A stretch of DNA of 64,000 nt from Candidatus Doudnabacteria bacterium. GTDB lineage: Bacteria; Patescibacteriota; Doudnabacteria; UBA920; O2-02-FULL-48-8. The DNA lies in assembly GCA_037200925.1 (NCBI GenBank), contig JBBCGO010000001.1:601607-665606 (forward strand), read 5' to 3'. Of this stretch, positions 4,061 through 63,883 are shown in pieces. How positions within the stretch are numbered: position 1 is the stretch's first letter; each line of letters begins with the position of its first letter. The position numbers and the translations under genes were made by a program. A model generated the notes under the pieces. That model did not search any database. It was given only the letters and a program-made list of their open reading frames with translations, and was not told the origin of the DNA.

Positions 4061-6069
4061 ATGAAGATTGCTATGAAATTCCAGCTTCAATCCGAATTCA
4101 AACCGGCTGGCGATCAGCCGCAGGCAATAGAAAAACTGATCAAAGGCCTGGAAAAAAAATACCGCTACCAAACCCTGCTTGGCGTCACCGGCTCAGGCAA
4201 GACTTTTACCATGGCCAATGTCATCCAAAAGATCCAGAAACCGACTCTGATCATTTCCCATAATAAAACTTTGGCAGCGCAACTGGCGAGCGAGTTCCAG
4301 GATTTCTTTCCGGAAAACGCCGTGCATTACTTTGTCTCTTACTATGATTACTACCAGCCGGAAGCTTACATCCCCCGCTCTGATACTTACATTGAAAAGG
4401 AGACCGAGATCAATGAAGAAATAGATAAATTGAGAAACGCGGCCACGCAAAGTCTGTTGTCGCGCAAAGACGTGCTCATCGTCGCGTCCGTATCTTGCAT
4501 TTACGGCTTGGGCAATCCGGCCAATTATCTGGAGCTGTCCATGCCCATCAAAACCGGGGAAACTTTTAAGCGCGATAAGTTCCTGCGGCGCCTGACGGAC
4601 CTGCAATTCATGCGCAACGACGTCAACCTGACCCGCGGCACGTTCCGCGTCCGCGGCGATGTGGTGGAACTCATCCCGGCTTCCGCGGACAAGATCCTGC
4701 GCCTGAATTTCAATGGCGACGAGATAGAAAAGATCTCGGAGCATGATCCACTCACCGGCCAGGATTTCGGGGTTCATGAGGAAATAACTATTTTCCCAGC
4801 CAAGCATTTCGTCACGCCCAAAGAAAAATTATTCGCAGCCATCGGCAACATTCGCAATGAACTGGCCGATCAGGTCAAATTTTTCAAATCCCAGGATAAA
4901 CTTGTTGAAGCCCAGAGAATTGAACAGCGCACCAATTTTGACATTGAAATGATGCTTGAAACGGGCTTTGTGGCAGGCATTGAAAACTACTCCAGGCAAC
5001 TGGATTTCCGCAAACCCGGCGAGCCGCCGTCCACGCTGCTGGATTATTTCCCGGATGATTTTTTGCTGTTCATTGACGAGTCGCATATTACCGTTCCCCA
5101 GATCGGCAGCATGTACCTCGGGGATCAGTCGCGGAAAAAAAACCCTCATCGATTACGGCTTCCGTCTGCCGTCTGCCGCTGATAACAGGCCTTTGCAATT
5201 TGAAGAGTTTGAGAAAAGGATCGGCCAGACCATCTTTGTTTCCGCAACACCGAACAAAGAGCGGGAATTGGCTGTTTCCAAGCAAGTGGCCGAGCAGCTC
5301 ATCCGGCCGACCGGACTTTTGGACCCGGAAATAGAGATCCGCCCGACGAAAAACCAGATCGACGACCTTATGGAAGAGATCCAAAAAAGAGTTAAACAAA
5401 AACAGCGCGTACTGGTAACGACATTGACCAAAAATATGGCGGAAGAACTGTCCAACTATTTGGTTGAATACGGCATCCGCGGACAATATCTGCATGCGGA
5501 CATTGAAACCCTGGAGCGGCTGGAGATCCTGCGCGACCTGCGCTTGGGAGTTTATGATGTGGTCGTGGGCATCAATCTTTTGCGTGAAGGATTGGACCTG
5601 CCGGAAGTTTCCCTGGTCGCCATCCTGGATGCGGACAAGGAAGGCTACTTGCGTTCAGAAACTTCGCTCATCCAAACCATGGGCCGGGCCGCCAGGCACG
5701 TGGATGGCCACGTCATTATGTATGCGGACAAGATCACCGGCTCCATGCAGCGCGCCATGGATGAAGTAACCCGCCGCCGGAAGATCCAGCAAGACTACAA
5801 TAAAGAACACGGCATCACTCCTGCCGGGATCATCAAAGGCATCAAAGAAACGCGCCTGGCCGGCATGAAAGTCGCGGAAGAAAAAACAGTCGGACGAGAT
5901 GGATCTGAGCAAAATGAGCAAGCAGGATATCGCCTATGCCATTGAAGAACTGCGGGACCAGATGGACTTGGCTGCGCGCAACCTGGATTTTGAAAAAGCC
6001 GCGTCTCTTCGCGACCGCATCACCGCCATCCGCGCCAAAACGCGGATGAAAAAACATAAATTCAAATAA
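4061..6069 (+). CDS. uvrB: Excinuclease ABC subunit B, split into three frames by two homopolymer indels at about 5135-5142 and 5881-5886
   Basis: The ORF contains GVTGSGKTF and [10 protein letters not shown], then continues as [15 protein letters not shown] in a second frame. The C-terminal UVR domain ([22 protein letters not shown]...[13 protein letters not shown]) lies in a third frame. Confidence 0.85.
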
Positions 6070-7145: not shown

Positions 7146-9431
7146 CTAGATCTTTATCTTCTCCATCTCCGACCAGTTGTCGCCGGATTTGGCATGGACC
7201 TCGATCGGGACTTTGAGCTTATAGACATTCTCCATGATATTTTTGATATATTTGGCCTGCTGTTCAGCTTTATTTTTCTCGGTCTCAAACACCAATTCAT
7301 CGTGAACTGATAATAGCATTTGCGCATCCGGGTGTTTTTTATCAATTTCTATCATGGCCATTTTGATTATGTCCGCGGCCAGGGATTGCAGAGGCATATT
7401 GAAAGCCTGCCGCTCTGCGGCTCCCCGCACCGCAAAGTTTGAGGCGTTGATCTCCGGCAAATACCTGATACGGCCCAGAGAATTTGTAATAAATCCCTGC
7501 TTGCGGGTTTTTTCGATCGTGCCGTCAATATATTTTTTGAGTTTTTTGAAAACTTCAAAGTATTGTTTAATGTGCTCGCCGGCTTCAGCGCGGCTCATGT
7601 CGGATCGTGACGAAAGTCCGAATGCTGATACTCCGTACAAGACACTAAAGTTAATGGTTTTCGCATCGCGGCGCTGATTAGGCGTTACCTTGTCTTCCGG
7701 AACATTAAAAATTCTGGCTGCGGTGGCGGTGTGAAAATCCCCGCCTGATTTGAAGATCTTGATCATCTCCGGATCTTCGGAAAGAGAGGCTGCAATGCGC
7801 AATTCGATCTGCGAATAATCCAGCGACAGCAACACTTTTCCTTTTTCCGCGATAAAAGCTTTCCGCACTTCGTTCCCCAGATCCGTACGGATAGGGATGT
7901 TCTGCAAATTAGGATTAATTGAAGACAATCTCCCGGTCGCGGCAATGGTCTGGCTGTAAGTTGTATGGATGCGGCCGTCTGCTTTGGATACAAGCAATGG
8001 CAACGCATCGACGTAAGTGGATTTTAATTTTGTCAGTTCGCGGTATTCAAAGATCAGCTCAATGATCGGATGAAGCTTGCGCATTTTTTCCAGCTCGTTG
8101 GCGGCCGTGGACATGCCGCCGGATTTTTTGTTCTTCTTGATGTTTTCCGTCGGGATCTGCAATGTTTCAAATAATACTTCCTGCAATTGCTTGGGAGAAG
8201 AAATATTGAACTCGCCTCCGGCGTGCTTATGAATTTCTTTTTCTAGCTGTTTAATGCGTTTATCAAGCTGCTTGGATAGATCCGAAAGCCAGACCAGATC
8301 TATTTTAATGCCCCGCTTCTGCATATTTTTAAGCACAGATATCAGAGGCACTTCAATATCCTGGAAAATTTTCAGGACATTTTTTTCTTTTAACTCGGTC
8401 GCCAAATCAGCCCAATCACCAACTTCATAACTGCGCTGGCCCGGATTACACAAATATGCGGCGATCAAGGCTTCTTCAGCCGTTTTGATCACAGCATTTG
8501 GTTTGCCCGGAATAACCGGAGCTGCGACCAATTCTGCCTGCGAACCTTTGGAAACTTTGGGCAGGCGGGCATTCAAAGCCTTGATTCCGAGACTGTTCAA
8601 AAGCCGGACGACTTTCGTTTGATCGTAATCGCCAAGCTTGGTTTTCTCAAAATCAAAATTCAGCTCGCCTTTTTGGTCTATGAAAGCCAGTTTATACGAC
8701 AAGTACGCTTTAGCCTTGCCGTCGATCAATTTTTGCAGAGTCCCGGCTTTGATCTTTTTTGCTTTGTTTTTCCACGGCTTCGTACACGCCATCCAAACTG
8801 CCAAATTGCTTGATGAGTTCTAACGCTCCTTTCTCTCCGATCCCCGGCACTCCCGGAATATTGTCGGAGGTATCTCCACGAATAGCTTTGTAATCCACCC
8901 ATTGCGACGGATGCAGGCCCGTGACCTCAACCATCTTATCAATATCAAAGATCTGAATATCTGAAAATCCGGTTTTGAACCGGTAAACTTGAGTATGATT
9001 ATCTATCAGCTGCAGCAGGTCCATGTCTCCGGTGACAATGATATTCAGAACATCTTTCGGGGTTTTATGAGCAATGATCCCTAGCAGGTCGTCAGCTTCA
9101 AATCCCTCTTTTTCATAAATAGGAATATCCAAAGCCGTCAAAATCTCTTTGATCTTCGGCAATTGCACCAACAACTCATCAGGTGCGGCTTTCCGCGTGG
9201 CTTTATAATCGGTTGTGAGTTTGTCGCGGAAAGTCGGCCCCTTCACGTCAAAAGTAACCAGAGTATGAGATGGTTTAATATCTTCCAATGCTTTAAAGAA
9301 CATGGAAAAAAATCCGAAAATGGCGCCGGTGGAAATCCGTCCTTGTTCGACATCGCCGGCAGAGCGTGGAAGGCGCGATGAAACAGCGCATGCCCGTCGA
9401 TCAATAAAAGTTTTCGTTTGGATTCAGCCAT
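7146..9431 (-). CDS. polA: DNA polymerase I, split into three ORFs by homopolymer indels at about 8750-8760 and 9300-9335
   Basis: The 5'-3' exonuclease N-terminus (LLLIDGHALFHRAFHA..., GFEADD) is present. The polymerase domain carries RRDAKTINFSVLYG and the SVHDELVFE motif C. Confidence 0.85.
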
Positions 9432-9537: not shown

Positions 9538-10122
9538 ATGCCAAGGACAAAGAAACCTGCTGATTTGCCCATGCTCGAACCTGAGGATGCGGCAATTGTC
9601 GTGGGCTATGATCTGGATGAGATGGTGCGCCAGCGCTACTGCGAATGGTGCCTGTTCTGGGATTTTAACCAAGCTTTGGAAACCAGCATCTTTCCAGAGT
9701 CCGCAAGATTAGTGCTGATCAACGCTGCGCTGGGTTCGTCAGGCGAGAAGCTGAAGAACATTTTCGAACAGAAGGGTCTTAAGGTACAGGTCGTATCAAG
9801 CGGAGTGCCCGCCATCCAATCCCTCATGGAAAAATTATTCGGGCCAAACATCAGTAAGGGCAACCGTGGGCCATTTATGCGACGAGTTATTGCTGAACCC
9901 GAACCTGATGCGGAGCTCGTACCCATAGAAGCGATGAAACGCGAACCTACCAGGCCTGCTCCAGATATTAAGAATTCTGGACAGGGCCTGCCCGTCAAGT
10001 CAAAAGACAATGCTGGCGACCTCGAAACGGTAACTCACTCGGATGAGGAATGGCAAGAGCGGCTCGGAGATGCTTTGACAGCACAAAAAAATGTTGAAAA
10101 AACATCTGACCAAGATAAGTAA
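9538..10122 (+). CDS. Hypothetical protein
   Basis: A GCAGGAGG RBS precedes the ATG at 9538. No recognisable domain was found. Confidence 0.35.
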   Translation: MPRTKKPADLPMLEPEDAAIVVGYDLDEMVRQRYCEWCLFWDFNQALETSIFPESARLVLINAALGSSGEKLKNIFEQKGLKVQVVSSGVPAIQSLMEKLFGPNISKGNRGPFMRRVIAEPEPDAELVPIEAMKREPTRPAPDIKNSGQGLPVKSKDNAGDLETVTHSDEEWQERLGDALTAQKNVEKTSDQDK

Positions 10123-14874: not shown

Positions 14875-16112
14875 ATGTATCTACCTAGCAAAACAATACT
14901 TGACCGTTATGCCAAAGTGCTGGTCCGCTTCGCGCTCGGTAGCGGCAAGGGGATAAAAAAAGGAGAGGTCGTCAGGGTCAGCGCCAACGAATCGGCAAAG
15001 CCGCTGTTTTTGGCAGTCTGCAACGCGGTCGTGGATGCTGGAGGCCACGTCATCTCTCATTATTCCCCGGATGACGAGCAGGGCGACAAACGACGTAATG
15101 AGAGTTTTACCCGCTATTTTTACGAACAAGCGGAACAACACCAATTGGATTTTTTTCCCGACAAATATCTGAAAGGCCTGGTCAACCAGATGGATCATTC
15201 CATATTTCTTCTGTCTACGATTGATCCTCACGCCTTAAGAGGCGTTGATCCCAAAAAAAATCATGCGCCGGGGAGAGGCGCTGAAGCCTTTCATGGATTG
15301 GCGGCATGAAAAAGAGTGGAAAGGAATTTTCACCTGGACAATTGCCCTTTACGGAACAAAAGCCATGGCTGCTGAAGCCGGTCTTTCGGAAAAAGCTTAT
15401 TGGGACCAGATCATCAAGGCCTGCTTTCTGGATCAATCAGATCCCATCGCAAAATGGAAACAGGTTTACAGGGATTTGGAGAGTTACCGTTCCAAGCTTA
15501 ACAAATTAGCGCCCAAAACCGACCGTTTGCATGCGGTGGGTCCTGACATGGACCTTTGGAATCAAGCTTGGAGAAAAGCGCAACTGGCTCGGGGGCAGCG
15601 GCCGCAACATTCCGAGCTTCGAACTGTTCACTTCCCCTGATTGGCGCGGAACAAACGGCTGGATCCGCTTTAATCAGCCGCTCTACCGCTACAGTAATAA
15701 GATCACGGGGATTCAGCTTTGGTTCAAAAACGGCAGGGTGGTTAAAAGCAGTGCTTCGTCGAACGAAAAATTACTGAAACAAATGATCGCAACAAAGGGC
15801 GCCGACAAAATCGGAGAATACTCGCTGACCGACAAGCGCTTCTCGCGCATCACCAAATTCATGGCAGAAACGCTGTTTGACGAGAACATGGGCGGCCCAA
15901 ATGGCAACACACACTTAGCTCTCGGCATGTCCTATCGCGACACTTTCTCAGGCGATGTATCTAAACTTAATAAAAAACAGGCGGCAGCATTGGGATTCAA
16001 CGACTCATCCGTGCATACGGACATCATTTCCACCACCCCGCGGACCGTGACCGCACATCTGAAAAACGGACAGGAAAAAATCATCTACACACAAGGTAAA
16101 TTCGTGATTTGA
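14875..16112 (+). CDS. Aminopeptidase, peptidase M29 (AmpS/PepS-like), split by indels at an A8 run (15253-15260) and a G5 run (15591-15595)
   Basis: The three ORF pieces align consecutively to M29 aminopeptidase, with a C-terminal [13 protein letters not shown]. Confidence 0.7.
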
Positions 16113-16143: not shown

Positions 16144-17185
16144 ATGGCGATTGAAACCAATGACATTGAAATAGACATCATCAGCCCGGCTCCCGTTTCT
16201 GAAGAAACGCTGTTTGAGGCAACTCTCCGTCCCCAAAAACTGTCGGACTACGTCGGTCAGGAAAAGATCAAAGAAAATTTGAAGATTTTGGTTGATGCAG
16301 CATCCGCCCGCAACGAAACATTGGAGCACATTCTGCTTTACGGACCTCCCGGCCTCGGCAAAACCACGCTCGCCCATATCATCGCCCGCGAGATCGGCTC
16401 CAACATCAAGATCACTTCAGGTCCGGCCATTGAAAAAGCCGGAGACCTCGCTTCTCTGCTGACCAATCTGACCGAGAACGACGTATTGTTCATTGATGAG
16501 ATCCATCGCCTGAATAAAACCGTGGAAGAAATTCTTTACCCGGCGATGGAAGATTATTGCCTGGACATCGTGCTCGGCAAAGGAGCCGGGGCCAAAGCGC
16601 TGCGTCTGGATCTGCCGAAGTTCACGCTGATCGGCGCCACCACCAGGATCGGCCTTTTGACCGCACCCTTCCGCGACCGGTTCGGCATGACTTACCGGCT
16701 GGACTATTATGAAGAGCCGGAGATCGGACAGATCATTGAGCGGGCGGCCAAAATTCTGAATATCAAGATCGATGAGATGGGCAAACAGGAAATTGCCAAG
16801 CGCGCCCGGCGAACTCCCAGGGTGGCTAACCGCCTGCTCAAACGCGTCCCGCGATTTTGCCCAAGTCAAAGCCGGTGGTAAAATTAATCAGTCAGTGGCG
16901 CAGCAGGCGCTGGCCCAGCTGGAGGTTGACGATCTGGGCCTCGACGGCAACGACCGCAGGATCCTCCTGGCGCTGATCGAAAAATTTGCCGGCGGCCCGG
17001 TCGGCATCTCCTCTATTGCCGCCGCCACTTCTGAAGACGCAGGCACGATAGAAGAAATTTATGAGCCGTATCTGCTGCGGCTCGGATTGATCGCGAGAAC
17101 CCCCAAGGGCCGGGTGGCCACGCCTGCCGCATATGACCATCTTAAGAAACCTTTGAAAAAAACAGAGATACAAACACTGTTGTAA
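16144..17185 (+). CDS. ruvB: Holliday junction helicase RuvB, frameshifted by an extra C near 16848
   Basis: The motifs [14 protein letters not shown] and LFIDEIHRL are present. The winged-helix C-terminus LLKRV|[10 protein letters not shown] is in the shifted frame. Confidence 0.9.
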
Positions 17186-22472: not shown

Positions 22473-22799
22473 CGCGTCGCTTTCAATTCAAAGTGATTGT
22501 TTGTCCCTTGGCCACACTTTGAATTGTTAAATTAATAGCTTATATAAATGTCAACGATTTATTCTAACAGATAAGTTATCAACATGTAAATATAAAAATT
22601 TTGGCTAATTTAAGCCAAAAAAAAGCTATCATGTTAATATCATGTGGATTATGCGTGTATTAAATGTATAAAGCCGGCGTTTAGGTTAAAACAGATGACA
22701 AAAAAGTCTTGATATAGTATAATCATGAAGTTAATAATACAAAAAATTTGAATCGCAGGAATGTCTGACGTTCCCAAGAACAAATTTTGAGATACGACG
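22473..22799. other. Candidate oriC / divergent promoter region between dnaA and rpmH
   Basis: The region is AT-rich. It contains near-consensus DnaA boxes TGTGGATTA (about 22643) and TTATCAACA (about 22576), and a U-type palindromic element at 22741-22791. Confidence 0.5.
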
Positions 22800-22934
22800 A
22801 TGCAACCAACATATCGACCGAAAAAACTGCGGCGCAAGCGGGTACACGGCTTCAGAAAAAGGATGCGAACAAGCAATGGCCGAAATGTTCTGTCGCGCCG
22901 AAGAGCTCGCGGCCGAAAGAAATTGACGGTTTAA
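22800..22934 (+). CDS. rpmH: 50S ribosomal protein L34
   Basis: The 44-aa [47 protein letters not shown] was missed by the ORF track, which has a 60-aa floor. Confidence 0.9.
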
Positions 22935-36693: not shown

Positions 36694-36835
36694 GGGAAAT
36701 TTAGGATACCAAATTCACATAAGCAACCATATCAGAATTATGTCCAATGGTCAATCTTAGCATGTGGATTGTTTGTGGGGTAATTTATTAGTCTTTAAAA
36801 AAAGACTAAAAAAAGCTATAATATTATTAATTCAC

Positions 36836-36885
36836 GAAAAAACTGAGTCGCAGGCGCAAAGGCGCCGAGAACAGTTTTTTCGAGA
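36836..36885 (+). repeat. U-type palindromic element (A5-CTGAGTCGCAG-hairpin-GAGAACAG-T6-CGAGAG)
   Basis: It has three further copies, at 22741, 57274 and 57422. The outer and inner stems covary between copies. Confidence 0.7.
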
Positions 36886-36950
36886 GAAGCAGCTGTAGAC
36901 CGTAGCGTATTTGCGAAGCAAATCGCGAAGTGTCTACCAGACTGCGACGA

Positions 36951-37024
36951 GGCGTCATGGCCGAGCGGTTAGGCAGAGGTCTGCAAAACCTTTTACACCG
37001 GTTCAACTCCGGTTGACGCCTCCA
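36951..37024 (+). tRNA. tRNA-Cys (GCA)
   Basis: The sequence folds into a cloverleaf with acceptor GGCGTCA/TGACGCC, anticodon loop CTGCAAA and T-arm ACCGG-TTCAACT-CCGGT. It ends with a discriminator T followed by CCA. Confidence 0.8.
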
Positions 37025-37029
37025 ATAAA

Positions 37030-37116
37030 GCCTGGGTGGCGGAACTGGCATACGCATGGGACTTAAAATCCCAGGCCCGCAAGGGATTGAGGGTTCGATT
37101 CCCTCCCCAGGCACCA
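37030..37116 (+). tRNA. tRNA-Leu (TAA)
   Basis: The acceptor is GCCTGGG/CCCAGGC and the anticodon loop is CTTAAAA. It has a long variable arm, the T-arm GAGGG-TTCGATT-CCCTC, and ends ACCA. Confidence 0.9.
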
Positions 37117-37326
37117 GAAATCGGAATCGAAGGGCAGAAGTGAAGCGAAGCTGAACGTCGACGAATGCGAGCAAGCGCAGCATTCGGCGCTGCCCCGGAC
37201 AGATTCCCTCCCCAGGCACCAGAAATCGGAATCGAAGGGCAGAAGTGAAGCGAAGCTGAACGTCGACGAATGCGAGCAAGCGCAGCATTCGGCGCTGCCC
37301 CGGACAGATTCCCTCCCCAGGCACCA
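37117..37326 (+). repeat. Two perfect tandem copies of a 105-bp unit, each an 85-bp structured D element plus an exact copy of the last 20 nt of tRNA-Leu
   Basis: The units at 37117-37221 and 37222-37326 are identical. Each ends gattccctccccaggcacca, matching tRNA-Leu 37097-37116. Confidence 0.85.
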
Positions 37327-37350: not shown

Positions 37351-39723
37351 ATGAATAAGAAAAATAAAATCTCCGCATCCAGTAAGAAAACCCTTAAGCT
37401 TAAAGTTTTAGCCAAGGAAAAGGAAGGTATCAGGCGCAGACTGGCTGTGACCGCAGGCAAACTTCGCCTTAAAGCCGAAAAACTTGCAGTGACGGCCAAA
37501 AAAAAGGAAAGCGTCAGGCGCAAGCTGGCCGTGAGGGCTAAGAGGCTTCCTATTAAAGCCGAAAAGTTGGCGGTAACAGCCAAAGAAAAGGAAAGTATCA
37601 GACGAAGGCTGGCTGTGACCGCAGAGAAACTTGCCATTACTGCCAAGGAAAAAGAAAGCATCAGGCGCAACCTGGCTGTGACCGCAAGACAACTTGCCAG
37701 AACAGCGAAAGAAAAAGAAAGCGTTCGGAACAAGCTGGTGGTAACGGCAGAGAAACTTGCTATAACAGCTAAGGAAAGAGAAAGCATCAGGCAAAATCTT
37801 GCCGTAACCGCCAAGGAAAAAGAAAGCGTTCGGAACAAGCTGGTGGTAACGGCAGAAAAGCTGGCTGTGACCGCCAAGGAAAAAGAAAGTGTGAGGCGCA
37901 ATTTGGCTGTGACCGCCAAGGAAAAAGAAAGCGTTCGGAACAAGCTGGTGGTTACTGCTAAAAAGCTCGCAATTACCGCCAAGGAAAAAGAAAGCGTTCG
38001 GAACAAGCTGGTGGTAACGGCAGAAAAGCTGGCTGTGACCGCCAAGGAAAAAGAAAGTGTGAGGCGCAATTTGGCTGTGACCGCCAAGGAAAAAGAAAGC
38101 GTTCGGAACAAGCTGGTGGTTACTGCTAAAAAGCTCGCAATTACCGCCAAGGAAAAAGAAAGCGTTCGGAACAAGCTGGTGGTAACGGCAGAGAAACTTG
38201 CTATAACAGCTAAGGAAAGAGAAAGCATCAGGCAAAATCTTGCCGTAACCGCCAAGGAAAAAGAAAGCATCAGGCGCAACCTGGCTGTGACCGCAGAGAA
38301 ACTTGCCATTACTGCCAAGGAAAAAGAAAGCATCAGACAGAACTTGGCAGTGACAGCCAAGGAAAAAGAAAGCATCAGACAGAACCTGGCTGTGACTGCC
38401 AAGGAGCTTGCCGTAACCGCCAAGGAAAAAGAAAGCATCAGACAGAACTTGGCAGTGACAGCAAAAGAAAAAGAAAGTATCAGGGAAAACCTGGCAGTGA
38501 CAGCAAAAGAAAAAGAAAGTATCAGACAGAACCTGGCTGTGACAGCAGAAAAACTGGCCGTGACTGCCATAGAAAAAGAAACAATGATCGCCAGTATCGG
38601 GGAGGGGCTTATTGCTACCGATGAAAAAGGAATTATTACCGTTATAAATAATACGGCTGAAAAACTGCTTGATATTAAAAGCGAAGAAGTTATAGGAAAA
38701 GTTTTTTCCGAAGTGATCCCTATGGAAGACGAAAAAGGAGCATCAATTCCGCCCCAAAAACGTCCTATGATCATGGCTTTGACAGCCGGTACGACTACCA
38801 GCACAACAACAGAGGGCGCAAGCTATTATTACGTGCGGAAAGACAAAACAAAATTTCCGGTCGCAATGGTGGTGACGCCTATTATTCTTGACAGCAAGGT
38901 CATCGGGACCATTGAAGTTTTCCGTGATATCACGCGGGAAAAAGAAGTTGACCGGGCTAAAAGCGAATTTGTGTCGCTTGCTTCTCATCAGCTCCGCACT
39001 CCGCCCACGAGCATGAAATGGTTTTTGGAAATGCTGCTTTCCGGTGAGGTCGGAGAATTAAACGAAAAACAGAGAGAATATTTCGAAGAGGTGTATAGGA
39101 ACAATCAGCGGATGATAACCCTTGTTAATACACTGCTTAATGTGTCGCGGATCGATCTTGGTGTGTTCGCCATTCAGCCCGAACCAACCGACGTAGTAGC
39201 CCTCACCAAGGGAATAATTGAAGAAATGAACCCGCAAATACACGAAAAAGAATTGCGCGTGAATGAAAAATATTCGAAGAACCTTCAAAAGATTTTCGTT
39301 GATCCGAAACTCATAAGCATCGCGATACAAGATGTTGTCAGCAATGCGGTGAAATATACGCCGCCGAAAGGAACTATTGATGTGGAGATCTCCTTGAAAC
39401 AAAACGGTGAGAGTATCGGAGGCCGATTGATCAAAAAAGACAGTTTGGTCGTATTTATATCGGACACCGGCTACGGTATTCCCAAAGACCAGCAGGATAA
39501 GATCTTTACCAAGCTTTTCCGCGCTGACAATGTGAAAGAAAAGGATACGGACGGGACAGGATTAGGGCTGTACCTGGCCAAGTCTATCATTGACCACGCC
39601 CAAGGGAATATTTGGTTCGAGTCTGAACTGAACAAGGGATCGAAATTCTATCTTACGATCCCGCTCGAAGGCATGAAGAAAAAAGAAGGAATAACAAAGA
39701 TCACCAGCGGTTCTACCGGTTAG
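37351..39723 (+). CDS. Cytoplasmic sensor histidine kinase with about 400 aa of N-terminal near-identical coiled-coil tandem repeats, then PAS, HisKA and HATPase domains
   Basis: The H-box SHQLRTP is present, with the N/G boxes (DTGYGIP, GTGLGL). A PAS domain carries a Thr-rich insert. The N-terminal region consists of 14-aa LAVTAKEKESVRRN units. Confidence 0.8.
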   Translation: MNKKNKISASSKKTLKLKVLAKEKEGIRRRLAVTAGKLRLKAEKLAVTAKKKESVRRKLAVRAKRLPIKAEKLAVTAKEKESIRRRLAVTAEKLAITAKEKESIRRNLAVTARQLARTAKEKESVRNKLVVTAEKLAITAKERESIRQNLAVTAKEKESVRNKLVVTAEKLAVTAKEKESVRRNLAVTAKEKESVRNKLVVTAKKLAITAKEKESVRNKLVVTAEKLAVTAKEKESVRRNLAVTAKEKESVRNKLVVTAKKLAITAKEKESVRNKLVVTAEKLAITAKERESIRQNLAVTAKEKESIRRNLAVTAEKLAITAKEKESIRQNLAVTAKEKESIRQNLAVTAKELAVTAKEKESIRQNLAVTAKEKESIRENLAVTAKEKESIRQNLAVTAEKLAVTAIEKETMIASIGEGLIATDEKGIITVINNTAEKLLDIKSEEVIGKVFSEVIPMEDEKGASIPPQKRPMIMALTAGTTTSTTTEGASYYYVRKDKTKFPVAMVVTPIILDSKVIGTIEVFRDITREKEVDRAKSEFVSLASHQLRTPPTSMKWFLEMLLSGEVGELNEKQREYFEEVYRNNQRMITLVNTLLNVSRIDLGVFAIQPEPTDVVALTKGIIEEMNPQIHEKELRVNEKYSKNLQKIFVDPKLISIAIQDVVSNAVKYTPPKGTIDVEISLKQNGESIGGRLIKKDSLVVFISDTGYGIPKDQQDKIFTKLFRADNVKEKDTDGTGLGLYLAKSIIDHAQGNIWFESELNKGSKFYLTIPLEGMKKKEGITKITSGSTG
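37411..38566 (+). repeat. Coding tandem repeat with a 42-bp unit (14 aa = 2 heptads), about 27 copies, and higher-order 168-bp near-perfect duplications
   Basis: Identical blocks such as gtgaggcgcaatttggctgtgaccgccaag recur at 37891 and 38059. Confidence 0.9.
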
Positions 39724-54998: not shown

Positions 54999-55817
54999 TC
55001 AGCGATTTTTTTGATTACCATCGCCGTTTTTGATTTGTTTTTTCAGGTCATCGATTTCTTTTTTGAGCTCCACCATTTTCAGTTCCCTGCCGATCATGCT
55101 TTTATTCACTGATTCCAATTCTGTTACTCTGCTGAGCAGTTCTTTTGCGCGCTCGGCGATCTTGACCTCGAGGCTTTTGGTATATTCGGCTAATTTACCC
55201 TCAAGCCCTTTTCTGGTGGTGATGTCTTCCATGGCCAGGATGATCAGTTGCACAGTGTCTATTTGTTTGGCATTGAGCAGTATAGTTTTTTCACCGATGG
55301 TTTCGAAAGTATGCGTGACGCCGTAATCCCTGACCATTTTTTTCTCCGGCAGAATTTCTTCCAGCAGGCTCTTCAGTTCAGGAATATTCCACTGGCCGTT
55401 CCCCAGTTTATAAAGAAGAATATTTTCCGTTTCTTGGGGCGAAACCTGAAAGGTTTCATAGAAAGTCGGATTCGCTTCAACCACGCGAAGATCAGCGTCA
55501 AGAATTAAGAACGACTCTCTGGCAACGTCTACCAAAGTTTTCATATAATGCAAAGCTTCCTGTTGTGATTCTTTGATCTCCTGCTTTGATTCTGTTAACT
55601 GCGCTTCTGATTCTTTTATTTTCTCTTCCGATTCTGTTATATTCTGCTTTGATTCTGTTAACTGCGCTTCTGATTTTTTTATTTTTTGTTTCGATTCTTT
55701 TACATCCTGCTTTGATTCTCTAATGTCCTCTTCGGATTCTCTTACTCCCAGTTTTGATTCTTTTAACTCCGCTTCCGATTCTTTTAATGTATCTGATTTT
55801 TTTGTGTCGTCGTTCAT
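54999..55817 (-). CDS. PAS-like domain protein with N-terminal ESK-rich coiled-coil tandem repeats, upstream partner of the histidine kinase and response regulator
   Basis: Repeats of KESEAQLTESKQ are followed by a PAS-like core and a C-terminal coiled-coil. The underlying DNA repeat spans 55560-55800. Confidence 0.55.
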   Translation of the reverse strand: MNDDTKKSDTLKESEAELKESKLGVRESEEDIRESKQDVKESKQKIKKSEAQLTESKQNITESEEKIKESEAQLTESKQEIKESQQEALHYMKTLVDVARESFLILDADLRVVEANPTFYETFQVSPQETENILLYKLGNGQWNIPELKSLLEEILPEKKMVRDYGVTHTFETIGEKTILLNAKQIDTVQLIILAMEDITTRKGLEGKLAEYTKSLEVKIAERAKELLSRVTELESVNKSMIGRELKMVELKKEIDDLKKQIKNGDGNQKNR

Positions 55818-56035
55818 ATTTTTGATCCCCCCAGTTAGTTTTAAGATTTTTAAGCTAAAATTAGTTTAATATTCCCTACGGTATAAAATCAGAATAGTTA
55901 AATTTTACCCCAATGTCAATAAACGCCAGTAAATCACTATATATCCGGCCAAAAATATTATAAATTGAGCGGGGTTTAATAATAAGGGCTTCGCAAAAGC
56001 CGCGAAGCCCCGAGTCCCAGCAGGACGCGTAACAG

Positions 56036-57166: not shown

Positions 57167-57241
57167 GGGCGGTTAGCTCAGTGGTAGAGCGTCTCGTTTA
57201 CACCGAGAAGGCCGTAGGTCCGATCCCTACACCGCCCACCA
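57167..57241 (+). tRNA. tRNA-Val (TAC)
   Basis: The acceptor is GGGCGGT/ACCGCCC, the D-arm is GCTCAGTGGTAGAGC and the anticodon loop is TTTACAC. It ends ACCA. Confidence 0.85.
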
Positions 57242-57273
57242 ATAAGATTTGGTATAATAGGATTTCTAAGACC

Positions 57274-57325
57274 AAAAAATTGAGTCGCAGTCCCGATTTA
57301 TCGGGACGAGAACAATTTTTTTGAG
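57274..57325 (+). repeat. U-type palindromic element (A6-TTGAGTCGCAG-TCCCGAtttaTCGGGA-CGAGAACAA-T7-GAG)
   Basis: It belongs to the same family as 36836, 57422 and 22741, and abuts tRNA-Phe. Confidence 0.7.
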
Positions 57326-57328
57326 GAC

Positions 57329-57403
57329 GCCTCGGTAGCTCATTGGTAGAGCGCAGCCCTGAAGAGGCTGGCGTAGTCAGTTCGATTCTGACCCGAGGCA
57401 CCA
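57329..57403 (+). tRNA. tRNA-Phe (GAA)
   Basis: The acceptor is GCCTCGG/CCGAGGC and the anticodon loop is CTGAAGA. It ends ACCA. Confidence 0.85.
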
Positions 57404-57421
57404 AAGAATATAAGGAATTAC

Positions 57422-57467
57422 AAAAAATTTGAGTCGCAGGCCGAAGGCCGAGAACAAATTTTTTGAG
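57422..57467 (+). repeat. U-type palindromic element (A6-TTTGAGTCGCAG-GGCCgaaGGCC-GAGAACAAA-T6-GAG)
   Basis: It is followed by a roughly 65-nt leader homologous to the one preceding tRNA-Cys. Confidence 0.7.
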
Positions 57468-57533
57468 AGGAGCGACGACCAGACCGTAGCACTTTTACGG
57501 GGTAAAATGCGAAGCGTCTGTCAGTCGCGACGA

Positions 57534-57607
57534 GCGGGTATGGTTCAGTGGTAGAACATTGCCTTGCCAAGGCAGAGATGCGGGTTCGATTCCCGCTACC
57601 CGCTCCA
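57534..57607 (+). tRNA. tRNA-Gly (GCC)
   Basis: The acceptor is GCGGGTA/TACCCGC and the anticodon loop is CTTGCCAA. It ends with a discriminator T followed by CCA. Confidence 0.85.
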
Positions 57608-57617
57608 AAAGAAAGTG

Positions 57618-57646
57618 CTCCATATGAGGTGATGGAGTTTTTTTTT
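57618..57646 (+). terminator. Terminator hairpin CTCCATatgaggtgATGGAG followed by T9
   Basis: A GC/AT stem and a long T-run lie directly after tRNA-Gly. Confidence 0.6.
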
Positions 57647-57777
57647 GGAATCGAACGGGCAGAAGCGAGACGAGGCATCAGCCGAAGTCGAGCGTCGATG
57701 AAAGCGAGCAAGCGCAGCTTTCAGCGCTGCCCCGGGCAAGGCGCATTAGCGCCGCGGAATTCCCGCTACCCGCTCCA
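57647..57777 (+). repeat. D-type structured element homologous to the 37117 units, followed by a 19-nt exact copy of the tRNA-Gly 3' end (attcccgctacccgctcca)
   Basis: The conserved blocks are GGAATCGAACGGGCAGAAG...GCGAGCAAGCGCAGC...GCGCTGCCCCGG. The inner stem TGAAAG/CTTTCA here corresponds to CGAATG/CATTCG in the Leu copies. Confidence 0.8.
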
Positions 57778-57780
57778 AAG

Positions 57781-57812
57781 AAAAAATCCGACCATAATGT
57801 CGGATTTTTTCT
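57781..57812. terminator. Bidirectional terminator AAAAAATCCGACCataatGTCGGATTTTTT
   Basis: A perfect hairpin is flanked by an A-run and a T-run. Confidence 0.65.
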
Positions 57813-63451: not shown

Positions 63452-63883
63452 ATGAAAAAGGGAATTGATTTTATCGGAGTCGCAGTAGTTTATTTTTGCC
63501 ATGACGGCAAAGGAAATGTTTTGATGGGAAAAAGAAGCAAGCAGGCACGGGATGAAAATGGCAGATGGGATATCGGCGGCGGGGGCGTGGAGTTTGGTGA
63601 AACAGTTGAAGGCACTTTGAAAAAAGAGATCAAGGAAGAATACAGTGCCGATGTTCTAAGTTTTGAATTTTTGGGGTTTCGCGATGTGCACCGAGCGCAT
63701 GATGGGCAAAAAACGCATTGGCTTGCGCTTGATTATAAAGTTTTGATAAATCCTTTGAATGTAAAAATAGGAGAGCCGCATAAGTTTGACGACCTGAAAT
63801 GGTTTACGCTGGAAAATTTGCCTGAACCCGTGCACTCCCAATTTCCTGAGTTCCTTGAAAAATACAAAGAAAAGTTGAAATAA
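63452..63883 (+). CDS. NUDIX hydrolase
   Basis: The Nudix box GGGGVEFGETVEGTLKKEIKEE is present. Confidence 0.75.
   Translation: MKKGIDFIGVAVVYFCHDGKGNVLMGKRSKQARDENGRWDIGGGGVEFGETVEGTLKKEIKEEYSADVLSFEFLGFRDVHRAHDGQKTHWLALDYKVLINPLNVKIGEPHKFDDLKWFTLENLPEPVHSQFPEFLEKYKEKLK

Follow-up and report, generated by a model that had tools for sequence, protein, structure and literature searches.

A two-hairpin leader module ahead of tRNA and translation genes in Candidatus Doudnabacteria-like bacteria: a structured RNA candidate and its possible roles

Introduction

A 64-kb stretch of a Candidatus Doudnabacteria genome (contig JBBCGO010000001.1; the whole stretch is called the window below) holds a short palindromic element ahead of the genes for tRNA-Cys, tRNA-Phe and tRNA-Gly and ahead of rpmH. 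What kind of element is this, and what might it do for the genes that it precedes? A preliminary description, made from the sequence alone, listed four copies, termed U, and treated them as isolated palindromes. This view had to be revised, as U is the first half of a two-hairpin leader module, the second half being a hairpin termed L. The module is a statistically robust structured RNA which matches no Rfam 15 family and was not found in the literature searched. It is a conserved structured element on the sense strand of the downstream gene, for which a regulatory or processing role at the RNA level is the best reading. Our tentative preference is for U being a factor-gated, terminator-like attenuator (a conditional terminator or pause) close to the promoter. 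The structure, conservation, position and orientation of U, its gene set and its patchy phylogenetic distribution are set out below, and from these we infer what the module may do. Related loci are designated by L and three digits.

Four copies of U in the window

All four copies were found where they had been described, on the forward strand ahead of the named genes (Table 1), and each folds as had been claimed, with z-scores of -2.7 to -4.6 against dinucleotide shuffles. The pattern TCGCAG-N8-36-AGAAC occurs five times in the window, while 0.66 matches are expected, and none of 100 shuffles reaches five. The fifth match (48009) is within a long open reading frame (ORF), is devoid of flanking tracts and is treated as a chance match. 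The same holds for a match to GAGTCGCAG at 63477. A covariance model of U (R1) was made from 12 related copies, and the whole window was scanned with filters off. Exactly four copies were found, at 38-75 bits. There is no fifth U in the window, the next sense-strand R1 matches (<20 bits) being ordinary terminators.

Several details of the copies could be refined. The internal motifs, described as invariant, are near-invariant but not strictly so: the rpmH copy, which is the most divergent and lowest-scoring one, reads GAAUCGCAG ... CAAGAAC. Compensation in the outer stem was confirmed, and this stem extends 1-3 bp past the A/U tracts with extra compensation (CAC/GUG, CG/CG, CAG/CUG, CGC/GCG). 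The inner hairpins covary as described, with the first one corrected to GGCGC-aaag-GCGCC.

Structure and conservation of the U hairpin

With 22 further non-redundant copies from outside the window, all on Candidatus Doudnabacteria-like contigs, 26 distinct copies are available. Standard pairs account for 98.5% of the cells in their pairing columns, compared to 85% in shuffles (0 of 500 reach the observed value). Compensatory changes are seen in 8 of the 18 pairs, pairing drops to about 50% when the partners are slid by one column, and G-U pairs are found on the sense strand. The hairpin consists of an outer stem of 11-13 bp, a 2-bp step, two internal loops and an inner stem of 4-8 bp, which corresponds to about 20-24 bp-equivalents. 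The stability of the core hairpin (mean -10.8 kcal/mol) is comparable to that of local terminators.

Conservation is distributed unevenly over this structure. The inner stem is different in every copy, and the apical loop takes insertions of up to about 35 nt (L026, L033). Across all 26 copies, no variation is seen in five A-U tract columns, in the U-A/G-C step beside the loop and in the UC/GA step; the outer-stem positions adjoining these and the entire inner stem covary freely. The UC/GA step parts the two internal loops, 5'-AG/A-3' and 5'-GCA/GA-3', which are purine-rich; their residues (5' AG and GCA; 3' GA and A) have the rpmH copy as sole exception among the 26. The tracts are A5-6 and U5-7, with only 4 U in the rpmH copy. 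Because the tract columns are identical in 26 copies while the stems covary, the tract sequence is under selection. The tracts are therefore conserved as sequence and not only as helix.

Ordinary terminators of the window consist of an A-tract, a perfect G+C hairpin and a U-tract (e.g., AAAAAAAGCCGC-UCUG-GCGGCUUUUUUU). In U, the G+C clamp is located 9-10 nt from the U-tract, with an A-U stem of 3-4 bp and the loops between them. U thus looks like such a terminator in which an invariant double internal loop has been placed so as to separate the clamp from the tracts.

Orientation, promoters and downstream genes

Each of the 26 copies has the orientation of the gene behind it and stops 1-10 nt short of the start of that gene. 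The genes preceded in this way are about 15 tRNAs, the ribosomal protein genes rpmH (L34), rpmG (L33), rplW (L23, two loci), rpsH (S8) and rpsT (S20), and further nusA, nusB, mutM and pilC. One U+L copy fills the P8 loop of a group I intron within a 16S rRNA gene. It had been proposed that the element is specific to genes of the translation machinery. Such genes are strongly enriched, but exclusivity does not hold (nusA, nusB, mutM, pilC and the intron copy). The 16S gene with the intron copy, from a Doudnabacteria metagenome-assembled genome (MAG), is unusual in itself (L014, 1887-5013+). It exceeds 3.1 kb, carries the group I intron (4175-4507, 59.6 bits with Rfam) near E. coli position ~1070, and has at least one further long insertion ahead of its 3' end, so that ...GGAUCACCUCCUUUCU is reached only at about position 5580.

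-10-like hexamers are concentrated 1-14 nt 5' of the hairpin base (34 of 53 matches within a 60-nt span). Several copies are preceded by clear TTGACA/TATAAT promoters, others (L026, L012) by no recognisable promoter. The distance between the -10 box and U ranges from 1 to ~40 nt, and the sequence between promoter and U is neither conserved nor fixed in length; therefore, any control must act on U itself. The gene next upstream is frequently co-directional, with its end 6-30 nt away (L32|nusB, S14|rpsH, pilB|pilC); the L4 gene ends 77 nt ahead of rplW. The mutM copy (L006) is placed after a terminator and a TATAAT box. In L062 (1-125), the heptamer GGAATAT, which holds a -10-like GAATAT, is found in at least seven tandem copies directly 5' of the U that precedes rplW.

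These positions bear on two explanations. One is that the copies are ordinary constitutive (bidirectional) intrinsic terminators, alike by common descent. They share the A-tract/hairpin/U-tract layout of the local terminators, and many of them lie 6-30 nt past a same-strand stop codon or after a tRNA. Nevertheless, we consider this highly improbable. Doubts about a plain bidirectional terminator, already voiced for the rpmH copy, proved justified: copies directly follow promoters with nothing upstream to terminate (rpmH beside the divergent dnaA; mutM in L006), and there is no room for a promoter between U and rplW, rpsH or pilC, several of the downstream genes being presumably essential. In addition, stems drift between MAGs but the loops are kept, and a consensus scan calls none of the four window copies. 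A canonical intrinsic terminator was rejected on the position of the clamp and because U is not at the 3' end of a transcription unit.

The other explanation, to which we give still less credit, is a DNA-level site (transcription-factor operator, cruciform or DNA-uptake sequence) overlapping the transcription start. The copies are close to -10 boxes, their outer arms are palindromic and A/T-rich, and C-GAA-G apical loops, which are very stable in single-stranded DNA, are frequent. However, GAGUCGCAG and GAGAAC are not reverse complements, so that a dimeric factor would find no dyad. The -10 box is at a variable distance, some copies have no recognisable promoter and one is inside an intron. 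Compensatory changes keep a pairing that binding to duplex DNA does not require.

The L hairpin and the two-hairpin module

In 21 of the 26 cases, U is followed by GARAGGAG and the L hairpin (~60-75 nt). A 22nd L copy, in L026, is behind a substitute plain hairpin instead of U. The homologous leader of ~65 nt that had been described after copies 1 and 3 was recovered with R2, the covariance model of L, at 36882-36952 and 57465-57535 (~70 bits), and R2 matches nothing further in the window. In the window plus 213 kb of loci, L occurs only directly 3' of U (L026 excepted) and never alone. Compensatory changes are found in 12 of 14 L pairs (RNAalifold and pair counting; 0 of 500 shuffles). An internal loop (C-GUA-GC / GC-GAA-G) is conserved, and at the base GGAG is opposite CGAC, able to form G-C, G.A, A.G and G-C.

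The module has the order -10 box, U, linker GARA, L, 1-3 nt, and then either tRNA +1 or AUG. In all nine mRNA copies, 1-3 nt separate the L base from the AUG, and in 12 of 13 tRNA copies 2-3 nt separate it from tRNA +1. The 16S 3' tail of a carrier genome is canonical (...CACCUCCUUUCU), and GARAGGAG is an 8-nt complement to it; the variable third base (A or G) would still pair with U of the tail. The four copies with U only retain GAGA plus (UA)CGAC(G) and look like derivatives from which the interior of L was deleted. Likewise, the linker between U and rpmH seems to resemble both ends of L with the interior deleted; the leaders in L057 and L012, ending ...AUUACGACGAUG, may be compared.

U as a candidate attenuator

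We tentatively favour, with a confidence that stays well short of even, that U acts as a factor-gated attenuator. U would be transcribed, would terminate or pause transcription and would be bound by a factor. The weak A-U lower stem beside the U-tract may close poorly on its own, so that RNA polymerase reads through. A putative trans-acting factor would recognise the invariant loops; this is most likely a protein, perhaps a Nus-type factor or a ribosomal protein, and less likely a small ligand. By rigidifying or opening the helix, it would set transcription into tRNAs and into translation and transcription genes. L would complete the leader, since both GARAGGAG, the complement to the anti-Shine-Dalgarno sequence, and the start of the gene are brought to its base.

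The attenuator is preferred because the tracts are invariant while the stems covary, because U is usually promoter-proximal, and because a tRNA leader can act in cis essentially only via transcription. A hairpin with U5-7 directly behind it is what typifies an intrinsic terminator. In U, hairpin and U-tract are located between promoter and gene, and nucleotides beyond those needed for pairing are conserved. The gene set is coherent, and there are established precedents in the L4/NusA-dependent attenuator of the S10 leader and in the termination-based autoregulation of nus genes. Transcription of rRNA is antitermination-modified and would tolerate a copy in a 16S intron.

Several points weigh against this assignment. 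The G+C clamp is not beside the U-tract, and a simple terminator scan calls none of the four window copies. Some copies are located between genes needed in equal amounts (L4|L23, S14|S8, pilB|pilC), where an attenuator would fit badly if the -10-like boxes just 5' of them are not genuine internal promoters. The conservation of L equals that of U, but L is transcribed after any decision at U, and the model leaves it unexplained. The element is missing at orthologous sites of close relatives and the rpmH copy looks degenerate, which would fit a dispensable or selfish element as well. Finally, no candidate factor came out of the analysis.

RNA processing and leaderless expression

The window is poor in Shine-Dalgarno (SD) sequences, which were found for 4 of 50 ORFs. 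There is also an enrichment of -10 boxes at 4-11 nt ahead of ATGs. TATAAT-like boxes are found 5-12 nt before several window ATGs (e.g., 2622-, 16144+, 39763+ and 56905-). This suggests that leaderless or near-leaderless mRNAs are widespread in this organism. In five relatives, rpmH is preceded by TATAAT, 7-8 nt and the ATG, with no U, which implies a leaderless rpmH mRNA in these genomes.

Against this background, the main rival of the attenuator, possible if somewhat doubtful, is that the module is a cassette for RNA processing, end protection and expression, i.e., a portable high-expression leader and punctuation between RNAs. U would be a site for an endoribonuclease (e.g., RNase III) or for a protective RNA-binding protein and, together with GARAGGAG, a 5' stabiliser. 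The role of L would be to bring the SD-like sequence to within an effective 5-8 nt of the AUG, or else to mark a cut that yields the mature 5' end. The constant spacing of the L base suggests that the 3' edge of the module is an RNA 5' end, and the copies are located at boundaries of separately functioning RNAs. The SD-poor genome with its -10 boxes close to ATGs, the apparently leaderless rpmH of the relatives and the complementarity of GARAGGAG to the 16S tail are all consistent with this. U spans about two helical turns, is mostly double-stranded and has internal loops, as is allowed for an RNase III site, and an RNase III gene was found in a relative. STAB-SD sequences, combined with 5' structures, protect mRNAs from RNase J1 (PMC4113751). 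However, tRNAs are the majority class, and since RNase P removes their leaders, a stabiliser or SD sequence would have no evident use there, yet GARAGGAG and L are equally conserved. The conservation of GGAG may be structural, as CGAC at the L base is a possible partner for it. Invariant A/U tracts and sequence-specific loops are needed neither for cleavage by RNase III nor for protection by a hairpin, and cutting inside P8 of the 16S intron would probably harm splicing.

It is tempting to speculate, although we judge this quite unlikely, that the whole module is a punctuation leader. A cut 1-3 nt after the L base would generate leaderless 5'-AUG mRNAs and tRNA 5' ends alike, and the released leader of ~120 nt could, with its invariant loops, be an abundant protein-binding small RNA. 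The cut would be made by RNase P for tRNAs, and for mRNAs by an RNase Z-, RNase III- or RNase Y-like activity or by the RNA itself. This would be the bacterial counterpart of mitochondrial tRNA punctuation.

Occurrence, gain and loss

When 185,579 species genomes were scanned with the exact pattern, 24 loci were obtained, of which 11 are clear members of the U family; the other 13 lack flanking tracts and were classified as chance matches. The members are from MAGs labelled Candidatus Doudnabacteria, Patescibacteria, "Saccharibacteria", Verrucomicrobiia and Methylomirabilota. The contigs from Verrucomicrobiia and Methylomirabilota MAGs (L002, L019 and L023 from DASPKQ01; L018 from DATJFX01) are probably mis-binned, because they have window-like tRNA clusters, promoters and U/L modules. 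A metagenome scan, which demanded the T-tract but not the A-tract, resulted in 39 loci. About 19 of these were judged true members, and each has the A-tract although this had not been demanded. The pattern scan of viral contigs gave 0 matches. RnpA from the window is 71% identical to a protein annotated as Candidatus Doudnabacteria. Neither U nor L occurs in ~100 kb from relatives with 48-73% RnpA identity. The density of U is about 1 per 8-16 kb. The module is limited to a subgroup of Candidatus Doudnabacteria-like bacteria (Patescibacteria, also known as candidate phyla radiation, CPR), which are ultra-small and come from groundwater.

Rfam 15 (4227 covariance models), applied to the window at the gathering threshold, reported 8 tRNAs and nothing else. 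At E<=10, the regions 36780-36960 and 57240-57540 gave only noise (best: TD-1, on the opposite strand, with 20 bits vs a cut-off of 64.5). On 20 related loci, Rfam reported only tRNAs, one 16S rRNA and one group I intron. A full-text literature search retrieved nothing relevant on CPR/Patescibacteria RNA motifs, on the motif string or on leaderless translation in CPR.

The module, which is usually close to a promoter, is gained and lost between close relatives. In the Leu-Val-Phe-Gly tRNA cluster, an internal promoter (TGKTATAAT) is conserved across orthologues, and the module is not. L018 has no element before either tRNA-Phe or tRNA-Gly. The window has U only before tRNA-Phe and U+L before tRNA-Gly; L022 has U+L before tRNA-Phe and none before tRNA-Gly; L026 has the substitute hairpin with L before tRNA-Phe and U only before tRNA-Gly. 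At rpmH, U is found in the window genome only. The orthologous tRNA-Gly copies (window, L023, L026) keep their loops, with drifting stems. A comparison of filled and empty orthologous sites revealed neither a target-site duplication nor a fixed 5' boundary. Together with inner stems that differ in every copy, this led to the rejection of a miniature inverted-repeat transposable element (MITE).

Two insertions were encountered at such sites. A more distant relative (L066, ~9700-9865) has an unrelated insert of ~190 nt in the rpmH leader. It is a long hairpin, CCCAGUAAUACUUCUUCGAU ... AUCGAAGAAGAUAUACUGGG, with its base ending 1 nt before the AUG, a layout like that of L. In L036 (2776-3170, -), U+L is followed by the first 34 nt of tRNA-Ala(GGC), split after nt 21 by a perfect hairpin of 53 nt. 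Next come a small ORF, which by eye resembles a GIY-YIG nuclease, and the complete tRNA-Ala; the orthologous site in L018 is uninterrupted. This appears to be an insertion that duplicated the 5' part of tRNA-Ala.

Such patchiness raises the question of a selfish or neutral dispersed repeat (MITE- or REP-like), spreading at the DNA level and surviving where it is harmless: in leaders that RNase P removes, before ORFs (to which it brings its own SD-like sequence) or in an intron loop that tolerates it. A putative recombinase would then recognise the conserved termini and loops. We consider this unlikely. It would account for presence and absence at orthologous sites in the tRNA cluster and at rpmH, for the ~100 kb of relatives that are devoid of copies, for the copy in the P8 loop and for the degenerate rpmH copy that has lost L. 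Non-orthologous L copies in one MAG are ~90% identical by eye (L006 mutM vs L012 rpmG), and other small insertions that target tRNA genes exist in these genomes. On the other hand, all copies are co-oriented and 1-10 nt from a gene start, yet they share no target sequence or target-site duplication. A perfectly paired inner stem that differs per copy while the loops are constant needs selection for pairing at each locus, and loops kept in orthologous tRNA-Gly copies while stems drift point the same way. The lack of matches in viral contigs also speaks against a repeat. A repeat would explain why the module is patchy, why one copy is in an intron and why the rpmH copy is decayed, but not the strict orientation, the compensation at each locus and the loop conservation in orthologues.

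A likeness to repetitive extragenic palindromic sequences and bacterial interspersed mosaic elements (REP/BIME) had also been proposed. It was not upheld, since the 26 co-oriented copies are at 5' ends and form no clusters of alternating orientation. The REP head GT(A/G)G is absent from U, which begins with C/A-rich bases and the A-tract. The CGUAGC within L is variable (GGAG, AUAG, GUAA) and is in the internal loop, not at the 5' end of the element. No transposase or REP-associated tyrosine transposase (RAYT) domain was reported in the 40 Pfam-scanned ORFs of the window, which may also argue against a selfish repeat.

Other candidate classes

Several known classes were tried and rejected. By hand threading, no register for a kink-turn (L7Ae or box C/D type) fits the U loops, the L internal loop or the L base. 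The latter (GGAG/CGAC) has tandem G.A but no bulge, and G8-C87 and N9-N86 covary as pairs. Likewise, no register fits for box C/D or hammerhead. A pseudoknot between loop GUCGC and 3' GCGAC was dismissed, as the GC before GACGA covaries in the L stem (GC/GC vs GU/AC), leaving 3 nt. A promoter inside the element is disfavoured because the distance from TTGAGT to a -10-like sequence would vary with an inner hairpin of 12-50 nt. The sense strand is devoid of boxA-like sequence (boxA/Nus site). A putative NusA-binding RNA sequence, GAACUCAAUAG, is a poor match and was dropped. Integron attC sites, DNA-uptake sequences and IS200/IS605 ends do not match, as the two conserved blocks differ from each other and are not palindromic, and as copies are few per kb and never change orientation. 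For complementarity to or mimicry of rRNA, the reverse complement of AGUCGCAG is absent from the L014 16S, and 5S is not among the Rfam matches on the leader at E<=10.

Features of the window

The copies in the window, with their promoters and the genes they precede, are listed in Table 1.

Table 1. Copies of the U and L hairpins in the window, with associated promoter elements and genes
Feature	Position	Strand	Remarks
-10 box TATAAT of the rpmH promoter (ATGACA-17-TATAAT)	22718..22723	+	16 nt 5' of hairpin base
U hairpin copy 4 (rpmH)	22740..22789	+	-12.4 kcal/mol, z -2.7; 38 bits
Linker AGAUACGACG, from U copy 4 to rpmH ATG	22790..22799	+	with closing G 22789 reads GAGA + UACGACG
rpmH (ribosomal protein L34, 44 aa; ATG 22800)	22800..22934	+	followed by rnpA, yidD, yidC, jag (order by Pfam, taken from relatives)
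-10 box TATAAT, tRNA-Cys copy	36817..36822	+	12 nt 5' of hairpin base
U hairpin copy 1 (tRNA-Cys)	36835..36882	+	-25 kcal/mol, z -4.6; 74.9 bits; outer stem CGAAAAAACUG/CAGUUUUUUCG; loops AG, GCA / GA, A; inner stem GGCGC/GCGCC
L hairpin copy 1: GAGAGAAGC ... ACCGUAGC - apical hairpin - GCGAAG ... GCGACGA	36882..36950	+	69.8 bits; basal C 36948, 2 nt ahead of tRNA-Cys +1
tRNA-Cys(GCA)	36951..37024	+	tRNA-Leu(UAA) starts 5 nt later
-10 box (TGGTATAAT), tRNA-Val/tRNA-Phe gap	57253..57258	+	kept at the orthologous site in relatives with or without element
U hairpin copy 2 (tRNA-Phe), inner stem GUCCCGA/UCGGGAC	57273..57323	+	62.8 bits; no L hairpin; AGGAC (5 nt) between U and tRNA-Phe
tRNA-Phe(GAA)	57329..57403	+	
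-10-like TATAAG	57409..57414	+	6 nt 5' of copy 3 hairpin base; weak; read by eye, uncalled by promoter scan
U hairpin copy 3 (tRNA-Gly), inner stem GGCC/GGCC	57421..57465	+	z -4.5; 74.1 bits; orthologous to tRNA-Gly copies in L023 and L026
L hairpin copy 2	57465..57533	+	71.7 bits; basal C 57531, 2 nt ahead of tRNA-Gly +1
tRNA-Gly(GCC)	57534..57607	+	

Other structured inserts are found at tRNA 3' ends. After tRNA-Leu(UAA) (37097-37326), a unit of 105 nt is present twice with 100% identity; each unit consists of a structured insert of 85 nt (GGGCAG...CUGCCC) and a fresh copy of the last 20 nt of the tRNA. After tRNA-Gly (57640-57783), there is a related insert (86% over a 56-nt core), followed by a copy of the tRNA's own 3' end. 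Similar inserts occur behind tRNA-Leu or tRNA-Val in relatives (L026, L019). This may be a very small element with tRNA 3' ends as its target, or the inserts may be scars of att sites.

Some protein-coding genes are also unusual. A histidine kinase (37351-39723; 790 aa, PAS/HisKA/HATPase) has about 400 N-terminal residues made from nested tandem repeats with periods of 21, 42, 63 and 105 nt (37410-38580), and ten tandem repeats of 21 nt (55540-55829) are within ORF 54999-55817 (-). Compared to relatives, several housekeeping genes seem split or truncated (7146-9303, 14875-16112, 16144-16881 and 4061-5182). The two parts of polA, for the polymerase domain and for the 5'-3' exonuclease domain, are on separate, overlapping ORFs. 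Two ORFs also make up Peptidase M29, while RuvB has 245 aa (345 aa in relatives) and UvrB is truncated. These may be either frameshifts due to assembly errors or pseudogenes.

Significance

If the attenuator assignment is correct, one short RNA motif would gate transcription into tRNAs, ribosomal proteins and Nus factors together. This would be a single cis handle on growth-rate control of the translation apparatus in reduced-genome bacteria, for which regulation is almost unknown, and would point to an RNA-binding regulator. If a processing role is correct, the module would show how an SD-poor, apparently leaderless organism expresses genes that are away from transcription starts. In either case, a well-supported candidate RNA family of unusual architecture is at hand, with two covariance models (R1 and R2) that can be run on all CPR genomes, and natural "with" (window, L022) and "without" (L018, L064, L067) alleles at orthologous loci make the question testable.

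Comparison with known systems

Leader attenuators of ribosomal protein and nus genes (the L4/NusA-dependent S10 leader of E. coli; NusA-dependent terminators of B. subtilis) are like U in having a promoter-proximal hairpin with a U-tract before translation or transcription genes. Their terminator hairpin is weak or imperfect, with protein-dependent efficiency, and nusA and nusB are among the targets of U itself. They differ in that U is one motif for many unlinked genes, mostly tRNAs, and there is no sequence similarity. The HMP-PP (thiS) riboswitch and similar small aptamers also combine conserved internal-loop nucleotides in a hairpin with a U-tract and have no separate antiterminator. In contrast to these, U has no Rfam match at E<=10, its gene set is non-metabolic, one copy is in an intron, and no ligand is suggested.

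The RNase III signals in the early mRNA of phage T7 (R0.3 to R1.3) and those of the Bacillus phage SP82 are dispersed hairpins of about two turns with conserved asymmetric internal loops. Like U, they are located just 5' of genes and ribosome-binding sites, in their case in polycistronic RNA, and their stems differ between copies. Unlike these, U is chromosomal and mainly before tRNAs, and invariant A/U tracts are no feature of RNase III sites. Gram-positive 5' stabilisers (STAB-SD of cry3A; the aprE and ermC stem-loops) share with the module a 5' stem-loop and an SD-like sequence (here GAAAGGAG / GAGAGGAG). The SD-like sequence of cry3A has no role in directing translation and can pair with the 16S 3' end (PMC4113751). 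The module differs by its position before tRNAs, where a stabiliser has no clear purpose, by its sequence-specific loops and by an SD-like sequence that may be sequestered at the L base.

REP/BIME and Correia-type MITEs are, like U, short structured repeated extragenic palindromes, which are co-transcribed with their neighbours and variable between strains. U differs by its strict co-orientation, its position at 5' ends, the lack of a GTAG head and the divergence of its inner sequences. Finally, read by eye, the lower loop of U (5'-G-AGU-C-3' / 5'-G-AA-C-3') shows A.A, bulged G and U.A arranged as in the bulged-G motif (loop E, sarcin-ricin), although a C-G pair is found where that motif is flanked by a sheared A.G pair. 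In L, there is a 3x3 loop, GUA/GAA. Loops of both kinds, bulged-G-like and 3x3, are typical protein-binding platforms.

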